Shown here: piece after piece, positions 3,218 to 53,552 of the stretch
How the letters are laid out: each line of letters begins with the position of its first letter
Numbering within the stretch: position 1 is the stretch's first letter
Source of the DNA: Eubacteriales bacterium
GTDB taxonomy: Bacteria > Bacillota > Clostridia > Oscillospirales > CAG-272
Assembly: GCA_045541375.1 (NCBI GenBank)
Contig: JAZQJB010000042.1
Coordinates: forward strand, 981 to 64,980
DNA length: 64,000 nucleotides
Reading direction: 5' to 3'
Notes under the pieces: model-generated
Told to the model about the DNA's origin: nothing
The model's input: the letters and a program-made list of their open reading frames with translations, nothing else
The model's database searches: none
Translations under genes and position numbers: made by a program

Positions 3218-3463
3218 AGTGGACAGTGGTTAGTGGACAGTGGACAGAAAGATGCGTAATCTGCTTGTTTCGTTGATAACTTCGCAAGGTAATTAAATAT
3301 CATATAAAAATGTGAAAAGAGATCTCGGATATCAAGAAGTTTTTACTTCAAAGTATCCGAGATCATTCTTTTCATTAAATTATTTCCTAAACAATAGAAC
3401 GATAATTAAAATTAAATTATCACTCGCATTTTTCTGTCCACTGTCCACTGACCACTGTTCACT
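3218..3463. repeat. Heptad-repeat inverted-repeat element, copy 1 (MITE-like, carries a central bidirectional terminator hairpin)
   Basis: 39-nt arms AGTGGACAGTGGTTAGTGGACAGTGGACAGAAAGATGCG (3218-3256) and their imperfect complement (3425-3463). Central hairpin arms at 3321-3331 and 3354-3364. Confidence 0.8.
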
Positions 3464-5042: not shown

Positions 5043-5653
5043 CTTTTGGAAGATTTTCTCGCTGCGCTCGAAAAACGGTATCTTATTAAAACGCCTCATT
5101 CGTCACGCTCACGCGTGCCACCTTCCCCCACCGGGGAAGGCTGCTTAATTGGTCGATAACCTTTAACTTTTCAGCGAACATCATTTACTGCTATAATTCT
5201 ATTTAGGCAAATAGGAATAATTTATTTGATTAATTTTGTGCTCGTAATAGAGTCGTTGCAAACATTTTCAAATAATATTCCACTTTGATATGTAAAATTA
5301 TGTTGCTAAATCAGCTTTGATGAATATTCATCGATTATTGACACACTTCGTCGAGTTTGACTGTCTTTAGTCGAAAAGTGGAGACATTCAGCCGACAAGC
5401 AAGCCCTGCTGTGTTGAGTGCGAACATCGAATATAGAGATAGAGAAATCAAGTAAATAAGAACTGTGCAAGTTATTTAATGCTTTTTATACTTATGAACA
5501 AAAGTGCATTATTGCACTTAACGAAATTCAGAAAATTTGAGCGTTACTAACAGTCAGCCTTCCCCGGTGGGGGAAGGGGGACCACGAAGTGGGGAATGAG
5601 GCGTTTTGATAAGATACTGTTTTTCGAGCGTAGCGAGAAAATCTTCCAAAAGG
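5043..5653 (+). repeat. Large hairpin-forming intergenic element, copy 1 (with ~250-nt extra insert)
   Basis: ~100-nt imperfect inverted arms at 5043-5143 and 5555-5653. Conserved core at 5213-5281. Confidence 0.8.
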
Positions 5654-9028: not shown

Positions 9029-9062
9029 AAAAGCTGATCCACTCACGTGGATCAGCTTTTTA
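9029..9062. terminator. Bidirectional intrinsic terminator after the HAD gene
   Basis: AAGCTGATCCAC-TCAC-GTGGATCAGCTT flanked by A and T runs. Confidence 0.8.
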
Positions 9063-9077
9063 TTGCCAGCAACAGCG

Positions 9078-9470
9078 AGAAGTTTTGATCGAACTTTTTC
9101 AAAAGTTCGCGGAGTATGAGGCGGAGCCTCATTTCAATGCGAGAGCTTCAGCTCTCGCTTCCGTGCTTCAAACAGGTGAAGCTCTGCTTCTCCTGTTTGG
9201 ACAGAGTCAATACTTCCCGATTGTAGGGAAGTATTGACTCTGTCACCCTTTGTCGAATAGAATTCAGAAAAATAAAGCGAAGGAGCAAAAATCTCCCCTA
9301 AAGGGAAGATTTTACTCCTTCAAAACCGTCGGCAGGGGCGCCGCCGGTTTTAAGCGCAAGGGGAGAGTTTCGCCCTCTGTGGAGGGCGACTTAAGGCGCT
9401 GCCTTAAGAATTCGCCGTTTGCCGAAGGCAAACATACTTTTCTGAAAAAGGTTGACCAAAACTTTCCGCT
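9078..9470. repeat. Multi-hairpin structured element, copy A
   Basis: ~150-nt core at 9080-9232 is homologous to the reverse complement of 25756-25909. Contains a chain of hairpins including a perfect 19-bp stem at 9200-9244. Confidence 0.75.
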
Positions 9471-12988: not shown

Positions 12989-13312
12989 AGTTGCGCGGGC
13001 TCCTTCCACCACTTCCGTGGTCCCCCTCCCTCCCGGAGGGAGGCTAAAGGGTGCGAGCAACCTTCATTGTTTGTGCAGCGAATCTTGCTCAAATTAATAA
13101 TTTTGCATACAAAAAAGGAATATTTTATTTGAATCAATTTGCACTCGTAACAGAGTTCTTGCAAACTTTTTCAATAAAATATTCCTTGTTGCTGTTTAAG
13201 GTTTAAGTTAAAACAATATTCGCTGAATATCCGAAGGAGTATGCACTAATCAATCAGCCTTCCTCCGGGAGGAAGGGGGACCGCGGAAGCGGTGAAAGGA
13301 GAGCGCGCAACT
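12989..13312 (+). repeat. Large hairpin-forming intergenic element, copy 2
   Basis: 57-nt inverted arms at 12989-13045 and 13256-13312. Conserved core at 13116-13175. Confidence 0.8.
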
Positions 13313-19267: not shown

Positions 19268-19635
19268 TGCAGTACAGACTCCGCCACCCCTCATTCGTCG
19301 CTTCGCGCCACCTTCTCCCAAGATCCGGGAGAAGGCGAAAAGTTTGTGCTATCCGCTTGTTTGTACAGCGAATGATATTCATTACAATAATTCAGTTAGT
19401 CAAAGAGGAATATTTTTATATAAATAATTTCGCGCTCGTAATAGAATTTTTGCAAACTATTTCAATAAATTATTCCTATTTGACCAACAAACGTTTTTAT
19501 CCTAAACGGTGTTCGCTGAAACGCAAAGAAGAGCGAACCAAACTAACTGTTCGCCGGAGGCGAACTATGCCTTCTCCCGGATCTTGGGAGAAGGTGGCGC
19601 GAAGCGACGAATGAGGGGTGGCGGAGTCTGTACTG
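19268..19635 (+). repeat. Large hairpin-forming intergenic element, copy 3 (perfect 67-bp terminal inverted repeats)
   Basis: 19268-19334 is the exact reverse complement of 19569-19635. Conserved core at 19405-19475. Confidence 0.85.
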
Positions 19636-20692: not shown

Positions 20693-20959
20693 AGTGGACA
20701 GTGGTCAGTGGACAAATAAGAGTGGACAGTGGTCAGTGGACAGTGGACAGAAAGATGCGAATGATAATTTAATTTTGATTTTTGCCTTCCATTGTTCCGG
20801 CAGATAATTCAAAAAAGGAATCGGATATTAAGAAGATTACTTCAAAATATCCGATTTCTTTTGTTTATTTCAGTTTTGCAGTAAACAGCGTTTCAGACGT
20901 ACTGAACAAAATTATTTGCCCGCATCTTTCTGTCCACTGTCCACTAACCACTGTCCACT
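20693..20959. repeat. Heptad-repeat inverted-repeat element, copy 2
   Basis: Arms at 20721-20759 and 20921-20959, plus an extra partial arm at 20693-20714. The right arm is the exact complement of the copy 1 left arm. Central hairpin arms at 20819-20829 and 20846-20856. Confidence 0.8.
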
Positions 20960-23755: not shown

Positions 23756-23832
23756 CTGCCCGTGGCACAGCTGGATAGCGCGTCAGACCCCGACTCTGAA
23801 GGACGCAGGTTCGAATCCTGTTGGGCAGGCCA
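23756..23832 (+). tRNA. tRNA-Arg (anticodon CCG) with an atypical C at position 33
   Basis: Cloverleaf folded by eye: acceptor CTGCCCG/TGGGCAG, D-loop AGCTGGATA, anticodon stem TCAGA/TCTGA with loop CCCCGAC, T-arm GCAGG-TTCGAAT-CCTGT, encoded CCA. It has its own promoter and terminator. Confidence 0.8.
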
Positions 23833-24117: not shown

Positions 24118-24588
24118 ATGACGCTACGCGAATTAAGAAAAAATAAAGGCATTACTCAGCAAAAAGCAGCAGAGTTCGTGGGTGTACCTCTGCGGACTTA
24201 CACCAATTATGAAAATGACCCCCAAAAGCAATCGAGTGTAAAATATAAGTATATAATCGATACACTCCGCACATACGGATATATTAATGAAGAAAACGGT
24301 GTGCTCACTTTGGATGAGATCAAGAGTGCTTGCATTTCTGTTTTATCCAAGTATCCCGTAGAATACTGCTATTTGTTCGGATCATACGCAAAAGGGAAAG
24401 CCACTCCCTCAAGCGATGTAGATCTATTTGTCAACACCTCTGTAACGGGATTGCACTTTTTCGGCTTGATTGAAGAACTGCGCGAGCAACTGAAAAAGAA
24501 GGTAGATCTGCTTGATCAAAGACAGATAGAAGGCAATTTTGAGCTGATGAACGAAATATTAAAGGACGGAATAAAAATTTATGGATAA
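24118..24588 (+). CDS. XRE-type HTH domain fused to a MntA-like minimal nucleotidyltransferase (type VII antitoxin)
   Basis: N-terminal LRELRKNKGITQQKAAEFVGVPLRTYTNYE (HTH_XRE) and C-terminal LFGSYAKGKATPSSDVDLFV (GSx10DxD NTase). 8-nt overlap with the HepT gene. Confidence 0.85.
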   Translation: MTLRELRKNKGITQQKAAEFVGVPLRTYTNYENDPQKQSSVKYKYIIDTLRTYGYINEENGVLTLDEIKSACISVLSKYPVEYCYLFGSYAKGKATPSSDVDLFVNTSVTGLHFFGLIEELREQLKKKVDLLDQRQIEGNFELMNEILKDGIKIYG

Positions 24589-24916
24589 TGTCAAAGGCGA
24601 CGCATATTATGTTGCAAAAATAATCAAAGACGTTAAGTTTATTATTTCCCATACACAAGACTTGACTCTTGAAATACTCGAAAGTAATGAAATACTATGT
24701 GATTCGATCCTTTTCCGTCTGATTCAGATCTCCGAAAACTCGGCAAAACTCACACCCGAGTTCAAATCGAGTCACCAAGATATTTATTGGGCAGCAATCA
24801 AAGGTATGAGAAACAAAATTGTGCATGAATATGGCGACGTAAAACTTGACATTGTTTATCAAACCGTCACGCAGGACATACCCGCACTTTGCAAGCTCCT
24901 CGAAAGGATTCAATAA
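24581..24916 (+). CDS. HepT-like HEPN (DUF86) toxin
   Basis: RNKIVHEY (Rx4HxY) HEPN motif, 111 aa. Confidence 0.85.
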   Translation: MDNVKGDAYYVAKIIKDVKFIISHTQDLTLEILESNEILCDSILFRLIQISENSAKLTPEFKSSHQDIYWAAIKGMRNKIVHEYGDVKLDIVYQTVTQDIPALCKLLERIQ

Positions 24917-25565: not shown

Positions 25566-25918
25566 TTGACATCCCCGCGTTTCTTGCGAATATTGAGGAA
25601 GAGTGCCTTTATCGGATAGATTTGTTTGAGAGGTATTGATATGTTTGCGCCCTTCGGGCGGGGGGTGACAGGAGCGCGTACTTGCCTTCGGCAAGTTGCA
25701 ACTCTTGCTTGTCGGCTCCCGCCTCCATTTTCCTTCGGAAAACCGCAAGAGCTGCACTTCCCTACATTCGGGAAGGACTGACTCTGTCCAAAATCGAGAA
25801 GCAGAGCTTCACGATTTTGAAGCACGGAGGCGAGAGCTGAAGCTCTCGCATTAGTCCGAGGCTCTGCCTCGTGCTCCGCGAACTTTTGAAAAAGTTCGAT
25901 CAAAACTTTCCGCTTTTT
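25566..25918. repeat. Multi-hairpin structured element, copy B (opposite orientation to copy A)
   Basis: Core at 25756-25909. Possible promoter TTGACA-N17-AATATT at 25566-25594. Confidence 0.75.
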
Positions 25919-25930
25919 TAATTGAGATGT

Positions 25931-25958
25931 AAAAATCCGCCCGTGTGGGCGGATTTTT
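25931..25958. terminator. Bidirectional terminator
   Basis: AAAAATCCGCCC-GTGT-GGGCGGATTTTT. Confidence 0.8.
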
Positions 25959-25974
25959 ATCTTTGGTTGGCAAC

Positions 25975-26715
25975 TTACTCAAGCGTAATGCTATCGCAAT
26001 TAAGAAAATCGTGAGCGGAGATGAGGGAGTTGGTAGGGATGATCTTCTGTGCGCCGCATTTTTTGCAGTAGACGCGCATTCCTTCTGCGGTCAGCTCGGC
26101 GGCGTAGTCGCCGTCGTAGGGGGAGGTGAGGTCGAAGGAGTCGGTGGGGGCGGTATCCTCGCTTCCCTCGGGGTGGCATTTGCAGTAGATCTTGCCCTCG
26201 GCGTCGAGGTCGTGGATGACGAAGGTGACGATCTCCATTATCTGCGGGTCGGGAAGGGCGGCTTCGTCGGCGTCGAGGTCGCGGAAGCTTTCGATGCCGT
26301 TTTCCTCAAGCATATCAAGCAGCTCGAGCTCGTTGCGCGCAAGCTCTGCTTTTACGTGGTTCTGCTCGCCCATAAAGCAGATGTTGATGCCCGAATAGGG
26401 GCAGGGAAGCATGAAGATGTCCTTGCCGTAAAAGAGGCTCGGATTGACGTTGAACTGGTGGGGCTTGCCGCAGAAGATGCAGGGAACGCTGATGCGTACC
26501 GAGCCGTCCGAGGCGAGAGTTATGTCAAGCGCGGCATTGTCGCGCGCGGATCTTTCGTTGTCCTCGCTTTTTTTGACCGAAGCGCAATCGGGGTTGGTGC
26601 ATTTGAGCCTTACCCTGTCCGCCGACAGCTTGAAAACGTCGACAGCGCTCATAATTCCGCTTCCGCAAGAGGGACAGCGGTAAGCGATCGAGGTCGATTT
26701 GGGTTCTAAAATCAT
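25975..26715 (-). CDS. Cys-rich hypothetical protein with multiple zinc-ribbon-like CxxC pairs
   Basis: CPSCG, CTNPDC, CIFCG, CKCH and CKKCG. GGAGG RBS. No family recognised. Confidence 0.6.
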   Translation of the reverse strand: MILEPKSTSIAYRCPSCGSGIMSAVDVFKLSADRVRLKCTNPDCASVKKSEDNERSARDNAALDITLASDGSVRISVPCIFCGKPHQFNVNPSLFYGKDIFMLPCPYSGINICFMGEQNHVKAELARNELELLDMLEENGIESFRDLDADEAALPDPQIMEIVTFVIHDLDAEGKIYCKCHPEGSEDTAPTDSFDLTSPYDGDYAAELTAEGMRVYCKKCGAQKIIPTNSLISAHDFLNCDSITLE

Positions 26716-41730: not shown

Positions 41731-43668
41731 ATGAGTACAATCGAAAAAGATAAAGAAAACCTCTCCGACGGCGCGGCGGAGGAGGTCAAGACAAAGAAAG
41801 AGATCCGCGCCGAAAAGCGCGCGAAGCTGAAAAAGGAAAAGGAAGAAAAGAAGAAAAAACGACTCCCGCTGAGGCGGAATATAGATAATAACATCTTCGC
41901 CCTCGCGCAGGTGTGGGGAACTTCGAAGTCGTATTTTATCATCTACTACCTTATGACCTTCCTCAACGCGCCGCTTGAGTTTTTGCTCTACACCTACCTC
42001 ATCCGACTGATCGTTGACAGCGTCGAGGGTGTGGGATGGTCGATCGACGCGATCTTCGCCTACATCTTCATCGTCGGCGGCGCGGCTATACTGATCTGGA
42101 TCGTTTCAAATTATTATTGGAACGCCATCTCGGGCATCTACTCCGAGAAGATCAACCACGCTCTGCGGCGCAAGCTCTACAAAAAGGCGACAGAGGTCGA
42201 TCTTGCTTGCTACGAAACGCCCGAGTTTTACGACAAATACGTCAAGGCGATGGACGAAACGCAGGAGCGCGTCCGCAAGGTCATGCAGACTCTTGATAAC
42301 CTCATCTGGAACATCATCACTCTTGCGATGACATCGTTCCTCATCTTCACGATCGATCCCTTCCTCATCGTCTTTGCGCTTATCCCGCTCCTTCTCGGAT
42401 TCGTCCGCAGAAAGGCAAACGTTCTGAATCACGATCAGAATTCCGAGCGCAAGCCGATTAACCGCAAATTCTCCTACGTCCGCCGCACCTTCTACCTCGG
42501 CGAATACTCGAAGGAGATGCGAATGGGCTCATTCTTCCCGCGCCAGCTTCAAATGCTCTCGGAGGTTCGCAAGAATTACAACGACCTGACGAAAAAGTAC
42601 GGGCCGAAACTCGCGATCTGCGATTTTATCAAGAATTTCGGACTTGAAGCTGTCACAGTCCTCGGCGCGACGCTTTATGCCGTATGGCGCACGATCGGCG
42701 ACGGTCAGGGCGGAATGACGATGGGCGACTGCCTTATCGTCCTCAACTCGATATCGAGCATATCCTACGCCCTTTCGACGATGGTGCAGTACCTCGCCGA
42801 GTTCAACGAGCACGCGCTTTACATCGAGGACGTGCGCTACTTCCTCGCTTATGAGCCGACGATCAAAGAGGATCCGGACGCTCCCGAGGCAAAGAAGGGC
42901 AACATCGAGTTCAAAAACGTACATTTCAAATATGAGGGCGCGGAAAAGGAATCATTGAAGGGCATCAATTTCCGAATTGCCGACGGCGAGCGCATTGCAC
43001 TTGTCGGACGCAACGGCAGCGGAAAGACCACCCTTGTCAAGCTCCTTCTCCGACTCTACGACCCCACCGAGGGCGAAGTCACTCTGAACGGCAAGAGCGC
43101 GAAGGATTATCGCCTTTCCTCCTGGCGAGCACTCTTCGGAAGTGTCTTTCAGGACTTCAAGCTCTTCTCGCTTTCGGTCAAGGAAAACGTCCTTCACCGT
43201 CTCCCCCGCGAGGGTGACGACGAAGCCGTGACCGAGGCACTCAAGGAGAGCGGCGCGTGGAGCAAGATCGAAACGCTCGAGCACGGCATTGAATCGACGA
43301 TGACCCGCGAATTCGACGATGAGGGCGTCAACCTCTCGATCGGAGAGCAGCAAAAGGTCTCGCTCGCGCGGATCTTTGCCGAAAAAACGCCCGTTGTCGT
43401 TCTCGACGAGCCCTCAAGCGCACTCGACCCGATCGCGGAGCACAAGATGTTTGAAAACATGATAAAGGCGACCGAGGGAAGAAGCGTCATCTTCATCTCG
43501 CACCGCCTTTCCTCCGCCGTGCTTGCCGACCGCGTCTATATGATGGAGGACGGCGAGATCATCGAGGAGGGCACGCACCACGAGCTGATGGAGAAGAACG
43601 GCAAATACGCCGAAATGTTCCACCTTCAGGCTAAAAACTATACGTCGGGAGGTGAGGACAATGGCTAA
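41731..43668 (+). CDS. ABC exporter, fused permease/ATPase half-transporter, subunit 1
   Basis: Six-TM domain plus NBD. Walker A GRNGSGKTT, signature variant LSIGEQQ, Walker B VVVLDEPSSALD. AGGAGG RBS. Confidence 0.9.
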   Translation: MSTIEKDKENLSDGAAEEVKTKKEIRAEKRAKLKKEKEEKKKKRLPLRRNIDNNIFALAQVWGTSKSYFIIYYLMTFLNAPLEFLLYTYLIRLIVDSVEGVGWSIDAIFAYIFIVGGAAILIWIVSNYYWNAISGIYSEKINHALRRKLYKKATEVDLACYETPEFYDKYVKAMDETQERVRKVMQTLDNLIWNIITLAMTSFLIFTIDPFLIVFALIPLLLGFVRRKANVLNHDQNSERKPINRKFSYVRRTFYLGEYSKEMRMGSFFPRQLQMLSEVRKNYNDLTKKYGPKLAICDFIKNFGLEAVTVLGATLYAVWRTIGDGQGGMTMGDCLIVLNSISSISYALSTMVQYLAEFNEHALYIEDVRYFLAYEPTIKEDPDAPEAKKGNIEFKNVHFKYEGAEKESLKGINFRIADGERIALVGRNGSGKTTLVKLLLRLYDPTEGEVTLNGKSAKDYRLSSWRALFGSVFQDFKLFSLSVKENVLHRLPREGDDEAVTEALKESGAWSKIETLEHGIESTMTREFDDEGVNLSIGEQQKVSLARIFAEKTPVVVLDEPSSALDPIAEHKMFENMIKATEGRSVIFISHRLSSAVLADRVYMMEDGEIIEEGTHHELMEKNGKYAEMFHLQAKNYTSGGEDNG

Positions 43669-45538
43669 AAAGCAAAAGGAAAAGCGCCAGTCGCTCGGAA
43701 GGATCCTGCGAAACAACGTCGTCCTCTTCGGCAAGGTCTGCAGATACACCCCCGAGCTCGTGCTTCTCAGCTTCCTCATCGAGGGCGTATTCCTCGGAGT
43801 AAACAACGCCGTTTACGGTGTTTTTACCCTCAATCTCTTCAACGCACTCGACCGCGGCGACCCGCTTGAGGACATCGTCAAGATCATCGGCTTAATGGCT
43901 CTGTGGTATGGAGTTTACTTCATCATCGAGCGCACCTATCACCGCGTGGTCAAGCCGAATCTCCACCACAAGCTCGATTACCATATCCACACCGAGCTGT
44001 TTATGAAGACAAAGGAGATCGACGTTGCCTGCTATGATGACCCCGAATTCTACAACGACTTCGTCTGGGCGATGGACGAGGCATCCTCGCGCTCGCTGAA
44101 GATCCTTGCCGATCTCAACACACTCGCGGCGCGTGTCATCGCTCTTGTCACCATTCTCGGAACGCTGATCGCGGCGGATATCGATATGGTCGTCATCTAC
44201 GTTGTCTGCGGAATGGGCGTTGTTGGTTGCGTTGTCAACTATTTCGGCAACAAGATCGGCTATAAGCACGAAAAAGAGAAAAAACCGCTCAACCGCAAGC
44301 GCGATTATCTCAACCGCGTCTATCACCTTCCCGACTACGCCAAGGAGATACGCACGGGCAGCGTCAGCGATCTGCTCCTCCGCGAAGCTGATTCGAACAA
44401 CGAGGACAGAGTAAAGCTTGCAAAGAAATACGGAATCAAGTATTTCCTGATCTACGGCATCTTCTATAACGTCTTTATGGAGGCAGTTCGCCTCGGGATC
44501 ATCTTCTACCTGCTGCTTCGAATGCTCGACGGCGCGATCCTTGTCGGAGTTTTCGCCGCGAGTGTCGGACTTATCTGGCGAGTCGAGTGGAACATCACCG
44601 ATTTCGTCGAGCGCGTTGCCAAATTCCCCGAGCACTCGCTCTTCCTCGAGAAGTATTATGGATTCCTCGAATACGAGCCGAAGGTAGTGAGCGGCGAGGT
44701 CAAAGTGCCCGCATTTGAGTCGCTTGAACTCAAAAACGTTTCTTTCACCTATGATTTTTCGGACAAACCGAAGTATCAGTGGCACAAATCCGACCACAAG
44801 AAGCCGAAAAACGAGAACAGCGGCAGTGCCGATGCCTTGAAGGGAATTGATCTGAAGATCGAAAAGGGCGAAAAGATCGCCATCGTCGGCTACAACGGCG
44901 CGGGCAAGACCACGCTCATCAAGCTGCTTATGCGCCTTTACGATCCCACATCGGGCGAGGTGCTCTATAATGGCAAAAGTGCGAAGGAATATGATCTTTC
45001 GGCATACCGCAACAAGATCGGATGTGTCTTCCAGGACTACAAGATATTCGCCACCACGGTTGCGGAAAACGTAATGTCGGGCGCGTATGACGAGGAAAAA
45101 GATTCAAAAACAGTCGCCGATTCCCTCGAAGCCGCTGGCTTTACCGAGAAGCTGAACACCTTAAAACTCGGCACGAATACGATGCTCACGCGCGAGTTTG
45201 ACAAAAAGGGCACCAATCTTTCGGGCGGCGAAAGCCAAAAAGTCGCCATCGCCCGCGTATTCGCCCGTCCCTACGAGCTCTGGATAATGGACGAGCCCTC
45301 AAGCGCACTCGACCCCGTCGCCGAGTACGAGCTGAATCAGTCTATCCTCAAATACGCCGAGGGCAAGACGGTAATCTTCATCTCCCACCGCCTTTCGACC
45401 ACCCGTATGGCAGACAGGATCTATATGTTCGATTCCGGCAAGCTCTGCGAGGTCGGCTCCCACGACGAGCTGATGGCGAAAAACGGAAAATACGCCGAGA
45501 TGTTCAATCTGCAGGCGGAGAAATATGTTTCGCAATAA
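43661..45538 (+). CDS. ABC exporter, fused permease/ATPase half-transporter, subunit 2
   Basis: Walker A GYNGAGKTT, canonical signature LSGGESQ, Walker B LWIMDEPSSALD. Overlaps the subunit 1 stop. Confidence 0.9.
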   Translation: MAKKQKEKRQSLGRILRNNVVLFGKVCRYTPELVLLSFLIEGVFLGVNNAVYGVFTLNLFNALDRGDPLEDIVKIIGLMALWYGVYFIIERTYHRVVKPNLHHKLDYHIHTELFMKTKEIDVACYDDPEFYNDFVWAMDEASSRSLKILADLNTLAARVIALVTILGTLIAADIDMVVIYVVCGMGVVGCVVNYFGNKIGYKHEKEKKPLNRKRDYLNRVYHLPDYAKEIRTGSVSDLLLREADSNNEDRVKLAKKYGIKYFLIYGIFYNVFMEAVRLGIIFYLLLRMLDGAILVGVFAASVGLIWRVEWNITDFVERVAKFPEHSLFLEKYYGFLEYEPKVVSGEVKVPAFESLELKNVSFTYDFSDKPKYQWHKSDHKKPKNENSGSADALKGIDLKIEKGEKIAIVGYNGAGKTTLIKLLMRLYDPTSGEVLYNGKSAKEYDLSAYRNKIGCVFQDYKIFATTVAENVMSGAYDEEKDSKTVADSLEAAGFTEKLNTLKLGTNTMLTREFDKKGTNLSGGESQKVAIARVFARPYELWIMDEPSSALDPVAEYELNQSILKYAEGKTVIFISHRLSTTRMADRIYMFDSGKLCEVGSHDELMAKNGKYAEMFNLQAEKYVSQ

Positions 45539-52930: not shown

Positions 52931-53019
52931 TGGCGGAGAGAAAGGGATTCGAACCCTTGTGGGCGTGAGCCCAAACGGTTTTCAAGACCGCCTCGTTATG
53001 ACCACTTCGATATCTCTCC
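52931..53019 (-). tRNA. tRNA-Ser (anticodon UGA), long variable arm, CCA encoded
   Basis: Reverse complement reads GGAGAGATATCGAAGTGGTCATAACGAGGCGGTCTTGAAAACCGT...GGTTCGAATCCCTTTCTCTCCGCCA. Confidence 0.9.
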
Positions 53020-53170: not shown

Positions 53171-53525
53171 GGCAACTCTGCCGGACGGCCGCGCGGTATT
53201 GTGCCGAAAGGTATTACCGTGAGGAAAGTCCGGGCTTCGCAGGGCAGGATAGCTGATAACGTCAGCCGCAGGTGACTGCCGGGAAAGTGCAACAGAAATA
53301 AACCGCCCGCGCAAGCGGGTAAGGATGGAAAGGCGAGGTAAGAGCTCACCAGTTCCTATGGTAACATAGGTCCGCTGTAAACCCTATCCGAAGCAACACC
53401 GTATGGGAGTCGTTTGCCCGACACATACTCCCGGGTGGCACGGGGAAACCCCGGAGCTGTATGGCGACATACAGCAAAGACAGATGGTCGTCCACGACAG
53501 AACCCGGCTTACAGGCAGAGTTGCA
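53171..53525 (+). ncRNA. rnpB: RNase P RNA, bacterial type A-like
   Basis: GAGGAAAGTCCGGGC, ACAGAAATAAACCGCC, GGTAAGAGCTCACC and ACAGAACCCGGCTTA conserved blocks. P1 stem GGCAACTCTGCC/GGCAGAGTTGC. Perfect promoter at 53137..53165. Confidence 0.92.
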
Positions 53526-53552
53526 TATATTGAATAATAAGGAGAAAGATTT

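Follow-up and report, generated by a model that had tools for sequence, protein, structure and literature searches.

A dispersed superfamily of modular hairpin-chain repeats in uncultured gut and rumen Clostridia

In a 64,000-nucleotide (nt) stretch of the Eubacteriales bacterium assembly GCA_045541375.1 (contig JAZQJB010000042.1; the whole stretch is referred to here as the window), a hairpin-rich block of about 400 nt lies between a gene for a HAD hydrolase and spoIIR, and its first part recurs in inverted orientation some distance away. The question raised by this locus is what kind of element the block represents. A reading made from the sequence alone (hereafter, the sequence-only reading) had proposed a structured RNA present in two copies, one of which fills a single gap between genes. 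Instead, the units proved to form a dispersed family, with numbers per genome that range from tens to about 100. Its classification as a dispersed repeat family is made with high confidence. The three units in the window, A1, A2, and B, are in our judgment probably members of a non-autonomous superfamily of modular repeats that resembles REP, BOX, and MITE (short for miniature inverted-repeat transposable element) sequences and is selected for its hairpins.

The inverted recurrence itself was reproduced by a repeat finder, which returned arms at positions 9071-9232 and 25756-25917 (162 nt, 87% identity). Pairwise alignment of the two copies showed both of the paired differences previously listed, namely, one stem in which three neighboring base pairs are exchanged (AAACAGG/CCTGTTT in copy A versus AAAATCG/CGATTTT in copy B) and a T:A pair changed to C:G in a second stem (TGAGGC..GCCTCA versus CGAGGC..GCCTCG). 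The hairpins that had been singled out by name were all in their places as well, including TTGCC-GAA-GGCAA (9417-9433), CGCCCTC-TGTG-GAGGGCG, and CTTAAGG-CGCTG-CCTTAAG. However, the segment from 9250 to 9470, which had been taken for a continuation of the same element, turned out to be a separate inverted copy. In an nhmmer search, positions 9469..9280 aligned to profile positions 2-171 (E = 1.4e-8), and a covariance model built from 34 units (model R1) scored this copy at 59.1 bits (E = 3.7e-17), compared with 194.6 bits for A1 (9080-9247) and 167.4 bits for unit B. With this minus-strand segment counted as a third unit, the block of 400 nt at 9071-9470 is an inverted doublet, that is, two units joined tail to tail, whose outer heads form an inverted repeat of about 30 bp. 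Unit A2 is nearest to a second sub-family (family 2, or the A2 type), which has the head in common with A1 but different variants of hairpins H2 to H5. The tail module that joins A1 and A2 also occurs in non-orthologous doublets at loci L024, L059, L050, and L035 (L-numbers denote retrieved loci outside the window).

Further units were retrieved initially with a 21-nt seed from the conserved start of the element, using a one-genome-per-species collection. The seed returned 84 loci in about 21 species-level Clostridia metagenome-assembled genomes (MAGs), all of them from uncultured gut or rumen Clostridia labeled Eubacteriales, Oscillospiraceae, 'Ruminococcus', or Clostridiales Firm_04, with at least 17 loci in one MAG and 6 to 7 in several others. 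A profile hidden Markov model recognized 115 distinct units in 657 kb, with at least two units at 24 loci, and model R1 gave 143 matches at E <= 1e-4, with up to five per 8 kb. Together with the three units in the 64-kb window, these figures correspond to an inferred density of about one unit per 20 kb, or roughly 100 per genome. Literature searches by topic and by sequence string yielded no description of the element. Similarly, no Rfam family matched it at gathering or permissive thresholds, the best sub-threshold scores at both loci being at most 33 bits, against gathering thresholds of at least 40 bits.

The hairpins themselves are strongly supported. Unit A1 folds at -88.3 kcal/mol, compared with -44.4 +/- 3.9 kcal/mol for dinucleotide shuffles (z = -11.2), and the corresponding z values are -5.3 for A2 and -6.0 for unit B. 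In an alignment of 34 units (A3), 98.9% of the cells in a five-hairpin structure are paired, versus 89.9% in column shuffles, although these units are related to each other and the cell counts are therefore not independent events. Changes on both sides were seen in 24 of 57 pairs, where 13.2 were expected, and none of 500 shuffles reached the observed values. The covariation score of the alignment was 0.265, compared with 0.10 after shuffling and at most 0.083 in slid controls. A search for homologs and covariation had been named in advance as the test that could overturn the structured element; homologs were found, and their covariation is strong. Hairpin H4 is a 13-bp helix in which, for nearly all of the 34 units, a single pair is non-canonical: T.T in 17 units and an A.G or G.A at the adjacent pair in 14 others. 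The 15-nt loop that had been described as fully conserved is the distal part of this helix; it is shared by A and B, as claimed, but is itself a 5-bp hairpin (GAAGC-TCT-GCTTC) beyond the T.T mismatch and varies across the family.

No long-range helix was supported by A3 covariation among the candidate helices. A helix termed P0 (GUUUUG/CGGAGY, with three invariant U.G pairs) was rejected for lack of double covariation, as was a junction helix (GCGGAG/YWCCGY), which also pairs in just 78% of cells. The architecture is that of beads on a string: units measure 60-290 nt and doublets about 400 nt, and most family-1 units end in ACCC followed by a GC-rich hairpin, H6, of variable sequence. Hairpin tips take inserted modules, such as the TTGCCGAAGGCAA mini-hairpin found in H1/H2, H4, or H5 of different units. 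The branched insert of about 80 nt in H5 of unit B and its H6 end are also present at the unrelated loci L009, L014, L032, L001, L045, L078, and L072. What is conserved in the body is the folding ability of each module, including the fixed single mismatch in H4, and not its sequence. These results establish the element as a high-copy, non-coding, modular repeat in which each module remains foldable, at orthologous sites as well.

Small hairpins also occur as pieces in their own right. A mini-hairpin of 13-17 nt, (A)CTTGCCGAAGGCAAG(T), is present in the window at 9417-9433 and 25681-25697 and at L033, L072, L036, L077, and L006. In different units it sits at the H1/H2 junction, in the H4 loop, or at the H5 tip. 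It has the look of a micro-module that moves on its own, and the TGCCGAA within it would fit the Spo0A-box pattern TGNCGAA. Tandem arrays of another mini-hairpin of about 22 nt (..ATGATG TTGCAC TTCG GTGCAA..) were observed at L078 (approximately 1560-1760), L003 (4690-4800), and L018 and upstream of units in L015 and L029, where they lie between the H6 of a unit and the next terminator-like hairpin.

Unlike the body, the head of the unit is almost invariant. It spans 28-35 nt, consists of AAGTTTTGATC followed by the palindrome CRAACTTTTTCAAAAGTTYG, and holds a perfect 9-bp palindrome whose sequence is conserved across many lineages. Retrieval with an exact seed biases the apparent invariance of the part of the head that the seed covers; AAGTTTTGATC, which adjoins the first seed but lies outside it, is nevertheless nearly invariant. 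The 28-nt head alone was found in at least 120 metagenome contigs. Among the matches listed, only about 10% of the head-bearing contigs have the body types seen in the window, and most carry the same head before other bodies, such as a single GC hairpin with a T-run (for example, ...GCGGGGTTTGGGGCGGAGCCCCAAGGTTTTG), GGCCCCCGGCAGGGCCGCCGGAGGC, or family-2-like chains. In some contigs, the head and a short body recur in a cassette-like tandem arrangement, three times with a period of 84 nt in L181 (206-460) and twice with a period of 94 nt in L101 (4062-4183). Because the same head stands before so many bodies, we regard the head as the invariant signature of the superfamily and the body as variable in both length and content. 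Plasmid and phage collections contained no true match to the head or the element, and just one contig with the head was present in IMG/VR. A match in Bacillus mycoides was discarded as an unrelated terminator with a loop that resembles the head by chance.

Comparison of orthologous sites revealed how units change. Across 13 orthologous groups recognized from their flanks, we counted 65 double compensatory stem differences, 35 single ones that leave pairing intact, and 41 by which it is broken; misalignment of H5 inflates the last number. At L021, the ortholog of the A1 site (flanks 82% identical), the three-pair swap by which H4 differs from that of A1 is identical to the one seen between A1 and B. 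The hairpin variants thus appear to be shared 'alleles' recombined in many combinations, which suggests whole-module exchange between copies rather than two fresh mutations. The differences between A and B do keep pairing, as the sequence-only reading had it, but these variants existed beforehand and are also seen in many further copies and species.

Whole units also come and go. In three metagenome contigs that encode a protein 100% identical to the 246-aa protein next to unit B, an A2-type unit replaces B at the identical junction, which reads ...AAAAAGCGGAAAGTTTT or, over a different length, ...AGCGGAAAGTTTT, and each of the four contigs obtained for this protein breaks off inside the repeat or immediately ahead of it. 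At L076, a 128-nt unit consisting of the head and H2-H4 lies between a stop codon and a terminator, and it is missing in the ortholog L020. These findings establish the unit as a discrete cassette that can be gained, lost, or replaced. At non-orthologous loci (the window, L021, L024, L047, L076, L059, and L050), two inverted heads lie 330-400 nt apart and mark a doublet, but single units outnumber doublets by about 8:1. Since the singles have clean, conserved H6 ends and their sub-variants occur at unrelated loci, the single units themselves probably propagate.

The units lie in intergenic DNA, typically just past the 3' end of a gene or a terminator-like hairpin. In the window, Pfam agreed with the previous assignment of the genes flanking the A1-A2 doublet to HAD hydrolase and SpoIIR, and a look-up of the exact HAD protein gave no record; unit B lies between the convergent 3' ends of the 246-aa gene, to which no family was assigned, and a kinase-like gene. 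The suggestion that copies always flank terminators held in part. In many but not all family-1 units, both copies in the window among them, the head is preceded at a distance of 17-30 nt by the end of a terminator-like hairpin with a T-run: such a hairpin was detected for 33 of 56 units by a lenient test and for 19-21% of 171 superfamily units by a strict one. In several sub-families this upstream hairpin is a conserved, covarying module, often situated behind arrays with a 7-nt period, and such an array also precedes the terminator-like hairpin at the unit B site in sister strains. None of the hairpins H1-H5 of A1 and B is followed by the T-run of an intrinsic terminator. No conserved sigma-70 promoter candidate was found upstream of the head in either orientation; by inspection, some lineages have a TAAAGT-like hexamer that spans the start of the head. 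A promoter-like sequence, TTGACT-18-TAGAAT (10 of 12 consensus matches), is formed at 9234-9263 on the plus strand by the 3' arm of H5 of A1 and the A1-A2 tail, and it faces spoIIR, 290 nt downstream. The tail also holds TGTCGAA, presumably a Spo0A-box-like heptamer.

The 7-nt-period arrays directly follow stop codons. In the window they lie at 3218-3247 and 20693-20750 on the plus strand and at 3434-3463 and 20930-20959 on the minus strand, and elsewhere they lie upstream of units at L005, L007, L013, L014, L024, L036, L056, L086, and L088. The repeat is AGTGGAC in the window and AGTGAAA, GGGCAGA, or AGTTGCT (= UAGNNNN) elsewhere, followed by 'AAGGTrAA' and a terminator hairpin, and array length varies between strains with an identical flanking protein. 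The spacing of AG every 7 nt before a terminator recalls the (UAG-N4)n binding sites of HutP-type proteins.

In the search for a mobilizer, no protein family was found to recur near the units. The DNA between head pairs 1.6-2.7 kb apart consists of ordinary genes (a sigma factor with an anti-sigma-like partner; an HTH-TPR protein). No autonomous insertion sequence (IS) with the same ends was found between heads or near units, a weak negative, since fragments were searched, and a motif screen for Y1 transposases found none in approximately 2,500 open reading frames (ORFs) from about 710 kb. The idea that the element is a scaffold resembling a single-guide RNA (sgRNA) or omegaRNA was dropped because no nuclease gene is associated with it and the upstream 'guide' region is common within sub-families.

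Because folding is kept while sequence is not, the element is likely to be read as single-stranded hairpins, either as DNA during mobilization or as RNA. The repeat is probably mobile. In the mechanism we propose, an enzyme acting in trans would recognize the head and initiate copying or recombination at that end, and the length of the body would be set where the terminal GC hairpin stops the process. Spread would then be one-ended and hairpin dependent, by an HUH, rolling-circle-like, or recombinase route, rather than by cut-and-paste between two terminal inverted repeats (TIRs), and an inverted doublet such as 9071-9470 would be no more than a pair of units joined at their tails. Any effects on neighboring genes, such as extra terminators or insulators or the promoter-like tail facing spoIIR, would be secondary. 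A one-ended mode fits the data because one end is conserved, the 3' extent varies and is closed by a GC hairpin, single units have no TIR, and no convincing target-site duplication (TSD) was seen. As no enzyme was found, this head-anchored mechanism is put forward tentatively, with confidence that is low. It is also conceivable, if rather unlikely, that the 28-nt head marks a new system widespread in anaerobic Firmicutes: either one-ended, HUH-like or recombinase mobilization of head-plus-hairpin cassettes, a dispersed analogue of attC cassettes, or a very large paralogous class of small structured RNAs, with about 100 genes per genome, that share a 5' domain binding a protein or RNA. If true, either system would be a new kind of genome component, beyond another MITE.

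Several observations weigh against a mobile, non-autonomous repeat. No transposase, RAYT, recombinase, or reverse transcriptase was found adjoining or between units. The only clean filled/empty pair is L076/L020, which might also record a deletion, and neither this indel nor the doublet ends show a convincing TSD, with a possible TA at L076. The per-genome copy number is an extrapolation from fragmented MAGs and metagenome contigs. Units also persist, almost perfectly paired, at orthologous sites across species, which agrees no less well with selection at the level of the host or of an RNA than with selfish spread. The forward strand of family-1 units folds better by 4.4 kcal/mol and is the more stable one in 49 of 57 of them, and a forward terminator-like hairpin follows 84 of 171 units, versus 54 in reverse; both biases hint at transcription. 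These biases favor the main rival, a forward-strand family of structured RNAs, either small RNAs (sRNAs) or cis-acting elements in untranslated regions (UTRs), in which the copies would be paralogous genes, the head a functional 5' domain binding a protein or RNA, and the chain a source of stability. Such a family would also account for the strong covariation and conserved non-canonical pair in H4, for pairing kept at orthologous loci, for G-C/G.U alternation in the possible junction helix, for the forward hairpin and T-run that end family 2 and the short metagenomic types, and for the unit at L076, which lies inside a 3' UTR in the orientation of its gene. A hand count of minority pairs in A3 gave about 17 G.U to 6 A.C; across 193 units, however, neither H2 nor the upstream hairpin showed an excess of G.U over A.C. 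The RNA family is further at odds with the terminator-like hairpin that often stands directly before the head in place of a conserved promoter, with the missing T-run after H6 in most family-1 units, and with the near-random orientation of units to flanking ORFs (by a crude and noisy ORF-based test). A chain of independent beads with no Rfam match is likewise not what it predicts, and some 100 paralogs per genome with free module swapping are unlike known sRNA families. We therefore consider a structured RNA family unlikely, while regarding it as the strongest competitor of the modular repeat.

The remaining alternatives are weaker. In a classical MITE, the mobile form would be the inverted doublet of about 400 bp, its heads serving as TIRs of about 30 bp bound by a DDE transposase in trans, and single units would be decayed halves. 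The inverted-head doublets at non-orthologous loci, the small, ORF-less, dispersed, and intergenic nature of the units, and the possible TA flanking the L076 unit agree with this. The excess of singles, their clean H6 ends and sub-variants at unrelated loci, and the fact that the sole filled/empty pair concerns a single unit do not; moreover, doublet ends share the head only and show no visible TSD, more widely spaced head pairs enclose ordinary genes instead of transposases, and TIR-driven transposition would not require constrained internal hairpins. Hence a classical MITE is improbable. We give still less credence to chromosomal architectural sites, that is, duplex palindromes or cruciforms bound by a nucleoid-associated protein, topoisomerase, or replication-linked factor, by analogy with REP-gyrase or REP-IHF sites in BIMEs. 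Almost purely Watson-Crick stems, the lack of strand bias in H2 and the upstream hairpin, the perfect head palindrome conserved across many lineages, and a high-copy, intergenic, randomly oriented distribution would suit such sites. A conserved mismatch and bulges in stems, in contrast, make little sense for B-form DNA, units are replaced between strains too rapidly for fixed sites, and, since the body palindromes covary freely, a sequence-specific binder of double-stranded DNA could read the head only. Finally, a gene for a small protein (ELFQKFAE..EAEP..NARASALASVLQ..), either duplicated or borne on a mobile element, was suggested by the single frame of six that is open across the core in both window copies, by the presence of the peptide in 16 database ORFs, and by a frame that stays open in 22 of 34 units. 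The earlier statement that the block has no start codon needs amending, as a 50-codon ORF beginning with TTG exists at 9085-9237, but this ORF is not conserved. In-frame stops or frameshifts break the frame in the other 12 units, as expected of the non-coding, hairpin-built element (here, five paired hairpins) that had been proposed. Predicted ORFs differ in N terminus and length, the frame shifts after LQN.EA in many relatives, and variability is nearly flat by codon position (0.37, 0.44, and 0.50 in 34 units). Radical amino acid changes come in pairs that mirror stem pairing (for example, R/L versus K/F), and the exchange of NARASALA for NAKASAFA in the peptide is the stem swap GCGAGAGC/GCTCTCGC versus GCGAAAGC/GCTTTCGC. 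With no Pfam family and no convincing ribosome-binding site in addition, a coding origin appears, from sequence comparison, to be effectively refuted. A non-autonomous modular repeat thus remains the reading we prefer.

The coordinates of the units and of the Rfam matches in the window are collected in Table 1; those matches are confined to the RNase P RNA and two tRNAs, all away from the element. Other features of the window were also noted. About 0.8 kb from unit B, overlapping genes at 24118-24916 (plus strand) encode an HTH and nucleotidyltransferase protein (MNT-like, 156 aa) and a HepT-like RNase (111 aa), a HEPN-MNT pair of the type VII toxin-antitoxin kind. A second repeat family has no sequence relationship to the hairpin-chain element; its direct repeat, which is AT-rich and 56 nt long (TTTATTTGATTAATTTTGTGCTCGTAATAGAG...TTGCAAAC...), occurs at 5221-5276, 13124-13179, and 19415-19470, and each copy lies between inverted arms of 70-106 nt (5037-5106/5589-5658, 14199-14283/14389-14473, and 19231-19336/19569-19674). 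A direct repeat at 43405-43641 and 45290-45526, 1885 nt apart (170 nt at 74% and 45 nt at 87%), likely stems from adjacent paralogous genes.

Table 1. Positions of repeat units, their modules, and structured RNA genes in the window
Feature	Position	Strand	Description
Terminator-like hairpin	9029-9063	+	Bidirectional (A-run and T-run); after HAD hydrolase gene, ~17 nt ahead of A1
Unit A1	9071-9247	+	Leader AGCGAG, 30-nt head (AAGTTTTGATC + H1), then H2-H5
A1 H1	9090-9109	+	Hairpin, part of head
A1 H2	9117-9131	+	Hairpin
A1 H3	9139-9158	+	Hairpin
A1 H4	9169-9199	+	Hairpin with T.T mismatch
A1 H5	9200-9244	+	Perfect 19-bp stem
A1-A2 tail	9248-9275		Spacer joining both units
Unit A2	9276-9470	-	Diverged copy with same architecture; head 9436-9470, H5' 9276-9323
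A2 modules after head		-	TTGCCGAAGGCAA mini-hairpin insert (9417-9433), H2' (CTTAAGG..), H3' (TCGCCCTC..), H4', H5'
Unit B	25647-25914	-	Head, H1-H4 like A1, H5 with branched insert, ACCCCC, H6
Unit B H5 insert	about 25679-25757	-	Branched module, ~80 nt
Unit B H6	25648-25660	-	GC-rich hairpin
Terminator-like hairpin	25929-25960	-	After 246-aa gene (25975-26715, minus), ~20 nt ahead of unit B
tRNA gene	23756-23829	+	Rfam
tRNA gene	52934-53019	-	Rfam
RNase P RNA, class A	53173-53527	+	Rfam, 252 bits

If the proposed reading is correct, an abundant clade of uncultured gut and rumen Clostridia carries, at about 100 copies per genome, a repeat with hairpins that are maintained unusually faithfully. 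Such a repeat breaks short-read assemblies at its sites, seeds spurious small ORFs in protein databases, and can mimic a covarying regulatory RNA in motif screens, and it also offers strain-level markers. It would provide a tractable case for the persistence and movement of REP/BOX-like repeats in Firmicutes and allow one to ask whether such repeats shape termination or promoter activity near genes such as spoIIR.

Since single units do not show the TIRs, or a clear TSD, by which MITEs are defined, depart from the definition of REPs, and match no Rfam family, we class the element among dispersed extragenic palindromic or modular repeats. REPs are single hairpins of 20-40 nt with a GTAG or CGTC head that flank a single-copy RAYT (Y1 HUH) gene, and REPINs have been described mainly in Proteobacteria; to our knowledge, no RAYT-type partner is known in Firmicutes. 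The units studied here differ in that they contain several hairpins over 60-290 nt, begin with a 28-nt AAGTTTTGATC... head, form doublets in a minority of cases, and lack the REP palindrome, and a motif screen of about 710 kb turned up no Y1 or RAYT-like ORF. The likeness to the REP/BIME/REPIN-RAYT system (PMC3116915, PMC3337134) lies in high-copy extragenic palindromes that persist vertically, can fold, occur as singlets and inverted doublets, would in both cases be recognized in single-stranded hairpin form by a trans-acting enzyme, and form mosaics with other short motifs.

MITEs such as Correia and ERIC resemble the element in being small, transposase-less, and dispersed in tens to hundreds of copies in intergenic or 3'-UTR positions, with stable stem-loop transcripts and possible promoter- or terminator-like signals, and they are defined by TIRs, TSDs, and a related IS (PMC10969869). 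The size below about 600 bp, the lack of a transposase ORF, and the multi-copy, dispersed occurrence are all seen here. Single units, bounded by the head on one side and H6 on the other, do not have TIRs at both ends, and inverted heads occur solely in doublets. One-ended HUH or rolling-circle elements (IS91/ISCR, Helitron-like) offer a functional analogy, as they combine one conserved end bearing a TTGAT-type motif next to a hairpin with a variable 3' extent to a GC-rich hairpin and have neither TIR nor TSD; neither an autonomous copy nor a gene for a Rep or Y2 transposase was found here, however, and the similarity to TTGAT is short and could have arisen by chance.

The nearest analogue, in our comparison, would be the pneumococcal BOX element, with REP/BIME/REPIN and the Correia and ERIC MITEs as other relatives by analogy. 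BOX is a self-folding boxA-boxB(n)-boxC modular repeat with about 125 copies and a mobilizer that is not known, described together with RUP and SPRITE (Croucher et al. 2011; PMC3049150). It has inverted boxA/boxC ends and TSDs, whereas the units described here show one conserved end per single unit and no clear TSD, a chain of two to six independent hairpins, and an invariant head across many lineages and habitats. The resemblance is architectural, and no similarity in sequence is expected. Both belong to Firmicutes, reach about 100 or more copies per genome, are intergenic and non-coding, and tolerate modules that are absent or repeated without disturbing the rest. Both, moreover, have no known mobilizer, are predicted to form extensive stem-loops if transcribed, and contain chance ORFs and some terminator-like members.

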